Below are positions 1-3,000 of a stretch of 64,000 bases of DNA, piece by piece. The stretch lies in NCBI RefSeq assembly GCF_057098645.1, contig NZ_CM169472.1. The stretch is one strand, 5' to 3'. The position numbers are program-made. Within the stretch, counting starts at the first letter, position 1. Every line of letters starts with the position of its first letter.

Positions 1-3000
1 TGATATGGGGTGTTTTCGATTTCAGATTACCGATGATTCACGACGCTTATGACGAAGAAAAAAGCACATAAACCTGGTTCAGCGACCATCGCGCTTAACA
101 AGCGCGCCCGTCACGAATACTTTATCGAAGAAGAGTTCGAAGCGGGACTTGCCCTGCAAGGCTGGGAAGTTAAATCCCTGCGCGCAGGAAAAGCCAATAT
201 CAGCGACAGCTACGTCCTTCTGCGTGACGGAGAGGCATTTCTGTTTGGCGCTAACATCACGCCAATGGCCGTGGCCTCCACGCATGTGGTGTGCGATCCT
301 ACCCGTACCCGCAAGTTACTTCTCAACCAGCGCGAACTGGACTCATTGTACGGTCGCGTCAATCGAGAAGGCTATACCGTAGTGGCGCTCTCCCTGTACT
401 GGAAAAATGCCTGGTGCAAAGTGAAAATCGGCGTCGCCAAAGGTAAGAAACAGCACGATAAACGTTCAGATATCAAAGAGCGCGAATGGCAGGTGGATAA
501 AGCGCGTATCATGAAAAACGCCCACCGTTAAACCTGCACTCCAATTATTGACCAGTTCCTCACCGCGCCTCCCTCTCCGGCGGCGCGAATGAACATCTTA
601 TTGGTTATCACATCCGACACAAATGTTGCCATTCCATTGCTTAATCGAATAAAAATCAGGCTACATGGGTGCTAAATCTTTAACGATAACGCCATTGAGG
701 CTGGTCATGGCGCTCATAAATCTGGTATACTTACCTTTACACATTGGGGCTGATTCTGGATTCGACGGGATTTGCGAAACCCAAGGTGCATGCCGAGGGG
801 CGGTTGGCCTCGTAAAAAGCCGCAAAAAATAGTCGCAAACGACGAAAACTACGCTTTAGCAGCTTAATAACCTGCTTAGAGCCCTCTCTCCCTAGCCTCC
901 GCTCTTAGGACGGGGATCAAGAGAGGTCAAACCCAAAAGAGATCGCGTGGAAGCCCTGCCTGGGGTTGAAGCGTTAAAACTTAATCAGGCTAGTTTGTTA
1001 GTGGCGTGTCCGTCCGCAGCTGGCAAGCGAATGTAAAGACTGACTAAGCATGTAGTACCGAGGACGTAGGAATTTCGGACGCGGGTTCAACTCCCGCCAG
1101 CTCCACCACTTTAAGAAGGACTACAACCGGACAGTAGCAATAAATACAGCCACTTACGGACACAAGCCAGACAGTAGTCGGACTGAAAAAAGACAAAAAT
1201 ATACACGTGAAATGCACGTGCACTTCTAAAAAACCCCAGTTATCACCGACTGGGGTTTTTCAATTTGTAACTAAGGGTAACAAAAACACCCCCGTTTTTT
1301 TCATCTCACTCACCTTGACACTGTTTATTTGTACAGTTAAAAATAACACTGTATACAAACACAGTATAGGGGGACTTTTATGCGTATTGAAATCTGCATA
1401 GCCAAAGAAAAAATGACTAAAATGCCAAACGGTGCTGTGGATGCGTTAAAGGAAGAATTAACCCGACGCATCAGTAAACGTTATGACGATGTAGAGGTGA
1501 TCGTAAAAGCCACCAGCAACGATGGCCTTTCTGTTACGCGCACCGCCGATAAAGATTCAGCTAAAACTTTTGTTCAGGAGACTCTGAAAGATACCTGGAA
1601 GTCTGCTGACGAGTGGTTTGTTCACTAATTAACACGTAAAATCGGTAACGGCTGGAAATCATTCAATACTCGCACTATCGAAAGTTCACCAGCCAACAGC
1701 GGTAAGTTCTTTCATACGACGTGCCGCGGATCCTATTATTCTAGTATGAAATCCCTAACCGATTTCAAATTCTCCAGACTGCTCAGATTCTCTTTTATCC
1801 CACGCTGGCGCTGATAAATCTCGTCATTGCAATCGACCTGCGCTATCGCTGCCGCAGTTCTTCCAGTTTCTGCATCGATAACTCCATCTTCTGAGCAATA
1901 AACCTCACCTATGCAATATTTTATGTCAATTATTTCAATTGCTGGATTTGCCCCTATATTTCCAGACATCTGTTATCACTTAACCCATTACAAGCCCACT
2001 GCCGCAGATATTCCCGTGGCGAGCGATAACCCAGCGCACTATGCGGATGCCATTCGTTATAATGCTCGAACGCCTCTGCAAGGTTCTTTGCTGCCGTTAA
2101 CCCGTCTGGTTTGGGCATGATACTGATGTAGTCACGCTTTATCGTTTTCACGAAGCTCTCTGCTATTCCGTTACTCTCCGGACTCCGCACCGCCGTGTTC
2201 TTCGGTTCAAGTCCCAACATCCGGGCGAACTGGCGTGTTTCATTAGCCCGGTAGCATGAACCATTATCCGTCAGCCACTCCACTGGAGACGACGGAAGAT
2301 CGTTGCCGAAGCGGCGTTCCACCGCTCCCAGCATGACGTCCTGTACTGTTTCACTGTTGAAGCCGCCGGTAGTCACCGCCCAGTGCAGTGCCTCACGATC
2401 ACAGCAGTCCAGCGCGAACGTGACACGCAGTCTCTCTCCGTTATCACAGCAGAACTCGAACCCGTCAGAGCACCATCGCTGATTGCTTTCTTTCACGGCC
2501 ACTCTGCCTGTATGTGCCCGTTTCGATGGCGGTACAGCAGGTTTTCGCTCAAGCAACAGCGCATTCTGGCGCATGATCCGGTAAACACGTTTGGCATTGA
2601 TCGCAGGCATACCATCAAGTTCTGCCTGTCTGCGAAGCAGCGCCCATACCCGACGATAACCATACGTGGGCAGCTCTCCGATAACATGGTGTATACGGAG
2701 AAGCACATCCGTATCATCAGTGTGACGACTGCGGCGGCCATCCATCCAGTCATCGGTTCGTCTGAGAATGACGTACAACTGCGCACGCGACACCCGGAGA
2801 CAACGGCTGACTAAGCTTACTCCCCATCCCCGGGCAATAAGGGCGCGTGCGCTATCCACTTTTTTGCCCGTCCATATTCAACGGCTTCTTTGAGGAGTTC
2901 ATTTTCCATCGTTTTCTTGCCGAGCAGGCGCTGGAGTTCTTTAATCTGCTTCATGGCGGCAGCAAGTTCAGAGGCAGGAACAACCTGTTCTCCGGCGGCC

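Follow-up and report, generated by a model that had tools for sequence, protein, structure and literature searches.

A candidate SOS cassette with two putative LexA boxes and a dinI-like gene at the ssrA edge of a defective lambdoid prophage

A small dinI-like gene lies next to ssrA, at the edge of a prophage, in the stretch of 64,000 nucleotides analysed here (hereafter the window). An earlier note on this DNA raised the possibility that such a prophage-borne DinI, under SOS control, could modulate RecA activity, and hence the induction of co-resident prophages, during DNA damage. The question is thus whether the gene is likely to be an intact SOS gene in its own right, and what its product could do. 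Sequence comparison makes it probable that we are dealing with an accessory cassette of a prophage (a "moron") that is self-contained, and in which two LexA operators would drive an intact gene of the DinI family. The features on which this reading is built are collected in Table 1.

Table 1. Coordinates of the cassette and of its surroundings, numbered from the first nucleotide of the window
Feature	Position	Strand	Basis
ssrA (tmRNA), 3' end forming the left prophage boundary	746..1108	+	ARAGORN; RefSeq annotation of the identical O145 sequence
Strong intrinsic-terminator hairpin with U-run, separating ssrA from the dinI promoter	1229..1265	+	Folding
Predicted -35 hexamer TTGACA, left edge of the mobile cassette	1315..1320	+	Promoter scan; cross-phage homology
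Putative distal LexA box, core 1321-1336	1319..1338		Pattern search and matrix
Predicted -10 hexamer AAAAAT, between the boxes	1339..1344	+	Promoter scan
Putative proximal LexA box, core 1349-1364	1347..1366		Pattern search and matrix
Shine-Dalgarno-like GGGGGA, 5 nt upstream of the ATG	1369..1374	+	Sequence inspection
dinI-like gene, 82 aa, intact; RefSeq WP_001217542.1, "DinI-like family protein"	1380..1628	+	Pfam, PHROG, fold
Last ~58 nt of dinI and 66-nt non-coding stretch	1571..1696		Genome search; K-12 comparison
Degenerate remnant of the cassette 3' hairpin, no U-tract	1699..1727	+	Folding
Presumed IS2 insertion, context only, outside the cassette	1943..3273	-	ORF architecture; O145 comparison

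Prophage setting and predicted promoter

The earlier note had located the gene at the ssrA-proximal end of the island, and the tmRNA gene found by ARAGORN (tag ANDENYALAA) agrees, since its 3' end at 1108 puts the cassette at that edge. The host prophage is a degraded, defective lambdoid one. It carries IS2, IS629-like and IS110-family elements; an integrase and an immunity region were looked for in it and neither was found, and a search for attR gave no repeat of the ssrA 3' end within the 64-kb window. The terminator that separates ssrA from the dinI promoter folds at -18.5 kcal/mol (z -4.5; not one of 200 shuffles was equally stable) and should insulate the cassette from read-through. Terminator-like palindromes are also found upstream of the dinI promoters of the Gifsy prophages (PMC3121763).

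A pattern search of the window returned two exact matches to CTGTNNNNNNNNACAG in front of the gene, the distal one reading CTGTTTATTTGTACAG and the proximal one CTGTATACAAACACAG. Three CTGT-N8-ACAG matches were found in the whole window against 0.67 expected, a number reached by 0 of 100 shuffles; the third, at 16637, is not among the 15 top sites of a LexA heterology-index matrix. This matrix was rebuilt from about 30 E. coli LexA sites and agrees only roughly with the published scale (the Gifsy-2 box scores 2.7 here and 3.92 in print). On this rebuilt matrix the HI-like scores of the distal and proximal 20-mers are 4.63 and 4.65, the two best on both strands of the 64,000 bases, the next site being at 11.5. 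Both lie inside the range of bona fide sites scored in the same way (0.9-9.8 for the reference sites, with recA at 4.7 and sulA at 4.3).

The promoter scan predicts hexamers that match the consensus at 10 of 12 positions, with a spacer of 18 nt. Given these positions, the distal box fills the -35/-10 spacer and the proximal box, which begins 3 nt past the predicted -10, covers the expected transcription start; the boxes thus flank the -10 and lie 28 bp apart. Palindromes scoring as verified sites do would therefore overlap the predicted core promoter elements. The two perfect CTGT-N8-ACAG boxes that the earlier note had seen over a putative promoter, upstream of a DinI homolog, are confirmed by the exact positions and by the promoter scan, and the position weight matrix scoring that it proposed ranked them as the two best sites of the window.

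The boxes were compared among 25 promoter variants drawn from 64 loci. Minor alleles per column number 0.25 in the half-sites, while the N8 spacers have 2.0, the stretch separating the boxes 1.8 and the Shine-Dalgarno region 2.6; summed, this is 4 over the 16 half-site columns and 32 over the 16 spacer columns. The CTGT and ACAG of the proximal box are invariant in 25 of 25 variants, the distal box keeps its half-sites with a variable N8 spacer, and the AAAAAT of the -10 shows nearly no variation. The two-box layout is kept in relatives (PhiR12_2, BP-4795) whose protein identity is only 58-68%. Homology between phages starts exactly at TTGACA, with 8.0 minor alleles per column upstream and 0.83 inside the hexamer. 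This pattern indicates that the half-sites of both boxes are under purifying selection in the E. coli clade. It also bears on the idea that the palindromes arose by chance or are what is left of a decaying relic, the gene being silent or constitutive. Degradation of the prophage and decay of the 3' end of the cassette in this copy would fit a relic, but the shuffles fall short of three matches, chance would have had to place the two best matrix sites of the window 28 bp apart on a consensus promoter and to hold their half-sites nearly invariant while neighbouring positions vary, and more than 20 O145 genomes carry the sequence at 100% identity. We regard this explanation as scarcely credible.

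The dinI-like gene and its 3' flank

The 82-aa product matches the Pfam DinI family (PF06183) along the whole profile, positions 1-63 of 63 (E 1e-18; 67.7 bits, the cut-off being 24.2), PHROG 189, "RecA filament binding protein DinI" (E 2e-30), and, over its full length, the sequence of the DinI structures 1GHH/7YWA (E 3e-12); its identity to K-12 DinI is 45%. An AF2 model (pLDDT 82) has the elements E-H-H-E-E-H, and in a Foldseek search it was superimposed on 7YWA_A (TM 0.79/0.82) and 1GHH (TM 0.79), further matches having E > 0.05. The model thus predicts a DinI fold, an alpha/beta protein of about 80 aa with a long C-terminal helix, superimposable on DinI. The score for the NCBIfam equivalog of chromosomal DinI (NF007893) is 69.9 bits and does not reach the cut-off of 111. 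Consistent with the RefSeq name, the protein is a paralogous "DinI-like" one and not the orthologue of chromosomal DinI.

K-12 DinI contacts the RecA groove through a hydrophobic pocket (L13/L21/W71/W77/F78) and an acidic patch (E24/E69/D76) (PMC9926225). In our alignment the equivalents are M15, L23, W73, W79 and F80 for the pocket and E26, D71 and E78 for the patch, so that 8 of 8 contact positions are retained, 5 identical and 3 with conservative changes (L to M, E to D, D to E). The family match, the match to the PDB sequences, the fold and these residues all agree with the earlier view of the ORF as a DinI homolog. The window allele has in addition a lysine at position 74, where 9 of 9 homologues compared have glutamate (E74K); this residue is within the acidic C-terminal helix and is absent from the listed RecA contacts.

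Downstream of the gene, at a distance of 315 bp, lies an element that we take to be IS2, its ORFs fitting the InsC/InsD architecture. Identity with O145 genomes ends at 1942, the flanks match O145:H28 genomes at 100% identity, and the offset to the uninterrupted O145 sequence is 1,336 bp, made up of 1,331 bp and a 5-bp duplication. Among complete E. coli genomes, none has IS2 at the same position. A 77-aa ORF on the - strand (1736-1969) is an artefact: it starts inside IS2, is absent from the uninterrupted O145 sequence and has no Pfam match.

This arrangement could be read as a truncated LexA operon, of which the real payload, an antirepressor or a YkgJ-like gene, has been lost downstream, dinI being a mere retained leader of little importance by itself. 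There are precedents for such an operon. In the Gifsy dinI-gftA/gfoA-irsA arrangement, dinI comes first in an operon regulated by LexA, and induction is triggered by the gene that follows it, an antirepressor (PMC3121763); in VT1-Sakai a single promoter is annotated for H0001 (dinI) and H0002 (YkgJ-like); and the E. coli chromosome preserves as a fossil the ancestral order of dinI, 66 nt, hairpin and ykgJ, while in the window the sequence past the hairpin differs and is gene-free. The dinI ORF itself, however, is intact, and it is 96-100% conserved in 80 viral loci, and in most variants a good terminator directly follows dinI, with unrelated DNA beyond, which argues for dinI alone as the conserved unit. 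Between 1629 and IS2, moreover, the + strand has no ORF of at least 30 aa save one from 1911 that runs into IS2 at 1943, and the uninterrupted O145 sequence downstream of dinI has none of at least 40 aa. As no small co-transcribed ORF was found downstream of dinI, an antirepressor operon of the Gifsy type was rejected, and we consider truncation in general unlikely.

The fossil itself is widespread. A search with the cassette gave matches in 5,242 of 5,426 complete E. coli genomes, mostly over ~1571-1696 alone and at 88-90% identity; the counterpart is an unannotated sequence that nearly all E. coli chromosomes have between ecpE and ykgJ. The non-coding stretch shares 62/66 positions with K-12, the dinI remnant 45/55. 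The name attB-in-PP_2 has been given to a prophage sequence, reported in Sp15 and in an ssrA prophage, that shows homology to the ykgJ/ecpE intergenic region (Nakamura et al. 2021, PMC8112680). Window positions 1571-1730 are homologous to that same intergenic region, and the 1571-1696 stretch is probably a homologue of attB-in-PP_2. The published site is 96 bp long, and the paper does not mention dinI. As the stretch is single-copy in the window, no phage is integrated at it here. Its interpretation as the attP of int-adjacent (mEp460-type) phages was rejected because mEp460-type prophages sit at dusA, with int beside dusA. Likewise, the break after CCAGCCAGCC at one phage locus (L057) was dismissed as an integration junction, because an acyltransferase-like ORF comes next and no integrase.

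Beyond this stretch, the 3' hairpin folds at only -10 kcal/mol (z -0.7) in the window copy, against -19 kcal/mol (z -4.3), with a U-run, in mEp460, and across 18 variants it shows compensatory changes at four pairs. The 3' terminator is thus decayed in the window copy and strong in relatives. The same elements raise the possibility that the key product is non-coding, an SOS-induced sRNA from the dinI mRNA 3' UTR. [quoted passage not shown] The 66-nt stretch is indeed the best-conserved part of the module between phage and chromosome, and in many relatives it is followed by the covarying hairpin with a U-run. Yet no Rfam family was matched at E <= 1, pairing with E. coli K-12 ftsZ (-60 to +45) was equalled by 361 and 356 of 500 shuffles, covariation is lacking in the inner hairpin, and the window copy has no U-tailed terminator. 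The conservation of the 66 nt may instead reflect its reported relatedness to a prophage attB site (PMC8112680). The first three of these results led us to reject a DinR-like sRNA, and a non-coding product is in our view very improbable.

Predicted action on RecA and on prophage induction

If an intact dinI-like gene under two LexA operators is the correct reading, the promoter would be occluded by two LexA dimers in undamaged cells, and DNA damage, through RecA-stimulated LexA self-cleavage, would free it. As both strong sites would have to be cleared of LexA, the gene is probably repressed tightly and induced relatively late. The product would bind the groove of the RecA-ssDNA filament, and the several cassettes of an STEC genome would enlarge the chromosomal DinI pool; we count about 4 copies per O145 genome. 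Depending on the dose, filaments would be stabilised, or the clients of the groove (UmuD, CI-type repressors) competed with. An action of the DinI-like product on RecA is plausible, to judge from its sequence. DinI engages elements of the RecA filament groove that are also used by LexA, UmuD and lambda CI (PMC9926225), and, while stoichiometric levels of it stabilise RecA filaments, an excess is inhibitory (PMC6590174). Since DinI is concentration-dependent in this way, the effect on induction could go in either direction.

In the Gifsy-1 and Gifsy-3 prophages, non-polar deletions of dinI did not significantly change the level and rate of induction (PMC3121763). By this analogy, the influence of a prophage DinI on co-resident prophages that the earlier note had envisaged is not supported by the only direct test that we found, and the net effect on prophage induction may be small. 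Any benefit to the phage is moot in this strain, as its host prophage is defective. One might nevertheless speculate that the double operator makes for a tight, late SOS gene, and that pooled prophage DinI, which could exceed the RecA-stoichiometric level because there are several copies per STEC genome, would do so only under severe damage, then competing with CI-type repressors and UmuD for the RecA groove. It would thus act on Stx-phage induction and SOS mutagenesis as a brake or timer that depends on dose and is encoded by the prophage. We hold this to be quite doubtful. Still more remotely, transcription driven by the SOS response might run through the adjacent attB-in-PP_2-like sequence and influence the integration of phage into prophage.

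Should the cassette work as predicted, lambdoid and Stx prophages would give their host extra, SOS-timed copies of a RecA-filament modulator, with a possible shift in the damage threshold for induction of Shiga-toxin phages and for SOS mutagenesis under antibiotics. The idea of modulation by prophage DinI has been stated before for Stx phages (PMC8456039) and the cassette has been annotated, so that no new question is opened here. Our additions are the limits of the cassette, which runs from the -35 hexamer as far as the 3' hairpin; a second, distal LexA box, unannotated and under selection across the whole E. coli clade; and a link from the 3' flank both to a published prophage-in-prophage attachment site and to the fossil that lies upstream of ykgJ, a core gene.

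Relatives of the cassette

The cassette has been described before and is an ordinary one, with which many lambdoid prophages of E. coli end. It is present in about 215 phage records and in 1,575 of 5,426 complete E. coli genomes, and copies in E. coli lambdoid and Stx prophages agree with it in 92-100% of nucleotides from the -35 hexamer through the 3' hairpin. Their DinI-like genes include H0001 (VT1-Sakai/Sp15), CP-1639 dinI, mEp460_021, cdtI and BP-4795 ORF85, and they share the position at the prophage end, convergent with tail-fibre genes. Across phages the context varies (ssrA, yehV/mlrA, dusA-int, yecD), the tail-fibre genes being always convergent; CP-1639 is likewise at ssrA and has the same upstream flank as the window. 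In the VT1-Sakai GenBank record of 2000 (AP000400) the promoter and the homologue of the proximal box, as a "putative SOS box", are annotated and the distal box is not; the mEp460 record also annotates the promoter. The window allele differs from these copies by E74K, its decayed 3' hairpin, the lack of a YkgJ-like ORF and the IS2 downstream.

The Gifsy-1, -2 and -3 prophages of Salmonella (Lemire et al. 2011) also have a DinI-family gene directly behind a LexA-occluded promoter. There, the protein identity is about 41%, and one LexA box lies over the -10 instead of two; the gene is inside the prophage by replication genes and is followed by an antirepressor gene, and the window cassette has neither neighbour. 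The Gifsy homologues, with their single box, are LexA-controlled by experiment and are induced 4.6-23-fold by nalidixic acid (PMC3121763, PMC8072944).

The chromosomal DinI of E. coli (b1061; 1GHH, 7YWA) resembles the window protein in its fold (TM ~0.8) and RecA-contact residues, and it too is LexA-regulated. Its promoter has one strong LexA box. The chromosomal dinI of Salmonella has one strong and one weak box, with HI of 4.0 and 17.6 (PMC8072944). Finally, Tum of coliphage 186, with split versions in Fels-2 and PSP3, is another LexA-controlled phage gene with a DinI-like domain. Tum has an N-terminal antirepressor half as well, whereas the window protein is the DinI domain alone, covering in the PHROG 189 alignment positions 71-149 of 151, that is, the C-terminal DinI half.

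Protein family and predicted promoter of the dinI-like gene

The earlier note had read a DinI homologue behind two LexA boxes, and profile searches confirm the family: the 82-residue product matches Pfam DinI (E 1e-18), PHROG 189 'RecA filament binding protein DinI' (E 2e-30) and, over its full length, DinI in the PDB (E 3e-12), with 45% identity to K-12 DinI. Its AlphaFold model (pLDDT 82) superimposes on DinI of 7YWA (RecA-DinI cryo-EM complex; TM 0.79-0.82) and on 1GHH, and a structure search with this model returned nothing significant besides DinI structures. The score against the NCBIfam equivalog for chromosomal DinI is 69.9, below the cut-off of 111, and on this score the protein is thus a paralogue of chromosomal DinI. 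DinI contacts RecA through a pocket (L13, L21, W71, W77, F78) and an acidic patch (E24, E69, D76) (PMC9926225); in our protein alignment (A4) the equivalents are M15, L23, W73, W79 and F80, and E26, D71 and E78, respectively. Codon 74 (1599-1601, AAG) encodes Lys in the O145 allele and Glu in all nine homologues compared, close phage relatives included. This reverses the charge within the acidic C-terminal helix, next to the RecA-contact residues W73 and E78.

Coordinates of the features in the window
Feature	Position	Strand	Remarks
smpB	49-531		window start
ssrA	746-1108		precedes prophage
Terminator-like hairpin and U-run	1229-1265		-18.5 kcal/mol, z -4.5; between ssrA and dinI promoter
-35 TTGACA	1315-1320		promoter scan
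LexA box 1 (distal)	1321-1336		CTGTTTATTTGTACAG
-10 AAAAAT	1339-1344		promoter scan; 18-nt spacer
LexA box 2 (proximal)	1349-1364		CTGTATACAAACACAG
Shine-Dalgarno GGGGGA			upstream of ATG at 1380
dinI-like gene	1380-1628	+	82 aa
Element taken to be IS2	1943-3273	-
NleG-family type III effector gene	3558-4208		nleG7 in RefSeq; PF06416, E 1e-47
291-aa ORF	4433-5308	-	without Pfam match
IS629-like (IS3-family) elements	5507-6774, 32917-33849, 43886-44818		296-aa transposase ORFs
IS110-family transposase gene	28969-30165

Both boxes lie where they had been claimed, and the putative promoter is indeed overlapped: with the two hexamers so placed (10 of 12 positions matched), box 1 occupies the spacer and box 2 begins 3 nt past the -10. 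From centre to centre the boxes are spaced by 28 bp, and by 29 bp in the VT1 type. CTGT-N8-ACAG occurs three times in the window, versus 0.67 expected, and at least three times in none of 100 shuffles. Matrix scoring, one of the checks that the note had proposed, gave 4.63 and 4.65 for the two 20-mers, the best two sites of the window on either strand, on an approximate heterology-index matrix compiled from some 30 LexA sites of E. coli. The next-best site scored 11.5, and the third CTGT-N8-ACAG match fell outside the top 15. The Gifsy-2 box scored 2.7 on this home-built matrix versus 3.92 as published, and the scale is therefore roughly right. The hairpin upstream, which was overlooked by a simple terminator scan and became visible in folding and a weak rimP-leader alignment, should insulate the dinI promoter from ssrA read-through; palindromes also precede the Gifsy dinI promoters (PMC3121763).

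The promoters of 64 loci fall into 25 distinct variants, and their homology starts exactly at the -35 hexamer. Minor alleles per column number 0.25 in the LexA half-sites, 2.0 in the N8 spacers, 1.8 between the boxes, 2.6 in the Shine-Dalgarno region and 8.0 upstream of the -35, as would be expected under selection for LexA binding at both boxes. Two boxes are kept in PhiR12_2 and BP-4795, where protein identity is only 58-68%, the distal box of BP-4795 being weakened.

The ssrA prophage

Past ssrA comes a degraded lambdoid prophage, which contains an effector gene (nleG), genes for tail fibres and the late genes Q and NinG. IS2, IS629-like and IS110-family elements are present and no integrase or immunity region was found in its part of the window, which shows it to be defective; the 3' end of ssrA was found only once in the window. 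Complete E. coli O145:H28 genomes, more than 20 of them, share segment 1100-1942 at 100% identity, and in them the gene bears the RefSeq annotation 'DinI-like family protein'. The element which we take to be IS2 inserted 315 bp 3' of dinI, with a target duplication of 5 bp inferred from a 1,336-bp offset, and was found at this position in no complete E. coli genome of the collection. A minus-strand 77-aa ORF (1736-1969) was rejected as a spurious creation of this insertion. Just past it, nleG7 and the 291-aa ORF form a small effector locus flanked by dinI on one side and by the tail-fibre genes on the other. Two of the three IS629-like elements are 98% identical across the 300 nt compared.

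Elsewhere, a 162-bp unit occurs three times in tandem (copies 89-92% identical; 21899-22503), within a minus-strand 405-aa ORF (21451-22668) of the structural region. ORF 31823-32389 of the prophage carries the N-terminal domain of the P22 antirepressor (PF10547; E 1e-45) and has no relation to the dinI cassette; the matrix scan found no high-scoring LexA site upstream of it. ARAGORN called 51988-52063 a tRNA-Met (CAT), and the apparent O145 counterpart is a tRNA-Ile in RefSeq, as would be expected of a CAT anticodon with the lysidine modification.

The 3' side of the cassette and its chromosomal counterpart

The dinI stop codon is followed by a conserved 66-nt stretch and then by a hairpin, four pairs of which have changed in a compensatory way. 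In many relatives this hairpin is a U-tailed terminator of good quality (mEp460: -19 kcal/mol, z -4.3); the window copy has a damaged stem without a U-run (-10 kcal/mol, z -0.7), and past it come a non-coding remnant and the insertion element. A small RNA from this conserved UTR, modelled on DinR (PMC10907235), is not supported: the UTR has no Rfam match, its complementarity to ftsZ is not above shuffles, its inner hairpin lacks covariation and the U-tail is absent from the window copy.

Just 3' of the cassette the cargo differs by phage (BP-4795, locus L087; loci L057 and L097/L098). It is nleG, a ykgJ-like ORF or a gene for a SAM methyltransferase, for a membrane protein that resembles acyltransferases or for a putative type III 'avirulence' effector, and the position has the look of an insertion hotspot for accessory genes.

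Segment 1571-1700 has matches of 88-90% identity in 5,242 of 5,426 E. coli genomes, unannotated in the core chromosome between ecpE and ykgJ (K-12 NC_000913.3, 304183-304494; 2184-2495, minus strand, in the retrieved locus L096). This fossil covers window 1571-1730, that is, the dinI 3' end, the 66-nt stretch and the hairpin. Since in VT1-Sakai dinI is followed by a truncated ykgJ-like ORF and the chromosomal match adjoins ykgJ, phage and chromosome share the order dinI, 66 nt, hairpin, ykgJ, with nothing but the end of dinI left in the chromosome. The non-coding stretch is the most similar to K-12, with 62/66 identical positions versus 45/55 (coding remnant) and 30/37 in the flanking segments. 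To judge from these alignments, what precedes the core gene ykgJ appears to be the remains of a phage module dinI-ykgJ. The text of Nakamura et al. (PMC8112680), in which dinI is not mentioned, describes 'attB-in-PP_2', a 96-bp site in prophages of STEC, among them Sp15 and one at ssrA, that shows homology with the ykgJ/ecpE region and at which lambda-like phages integrate into prophages. Window about 1600-1696 is probably its homologue, as judged by its match to the ykgJ/ecpE region; the window has no phage integrated there.

Proposed action and comparison with known cassettes

The firm results concern sequence features, protein family and fold, the contact residues that are retained and the pattern of conservation. 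By what is established about the SOS response, RNA polymerase would be blocked by LexA dimers at both boxes, and damage would derepress the dinI-like gene through RecA-stimulated LexA cleavage. The presence of two strong operators suggests that repression is tight. The product would then bind the RecA filament groove, which is also used by LexA, UmuD and lambda CI (PMC9926225). At stoichiometric dose DinI stabilises filaments, and in excess it inhibits RecA functions (PMC6590174). Deletions of Gifsy dinI left induction unchanged (PMC3121763). As no antirepressor ORF lies between dinI and the insertion element, a Gifsy-type induction switch is ruled out for this cassette.

The cassette occurs in 215 phage records, chiefly of E. 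coli lambdoid phages, Stx-converting ones included, and at 80% coverage or more in 1,575 of the 5,426 complete E. coli genomes. Phage CP-1639 is likewise integrated at ssrA and also shares the flank upstream of the promoter. More distant phage dinI genes differ: the Klebsiella, Gifsy-2 and Aeromonas ones carry just one box, placed over the -10, and the one of Yersinia YeP3 has no box directly upstream. The finding itself is already known, since the VT1-Sakai record (AP000400) annotates for the homologous gene a 'putative promoter of H0001 and H0002' and a 'putative SOS box' (the proximal box alone), the mEp460 record annotates the promoter, the Gifsy homologues in Salmonella are damage-induced under LexA control (PMC3121763, PMC8072944), and the suggestion that phage DinI limits Stx-phage induction is in print (PMC8456039). 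The feature is real and had been correctly read, but as a prophage cassette it is ordinary and had been annotated before.
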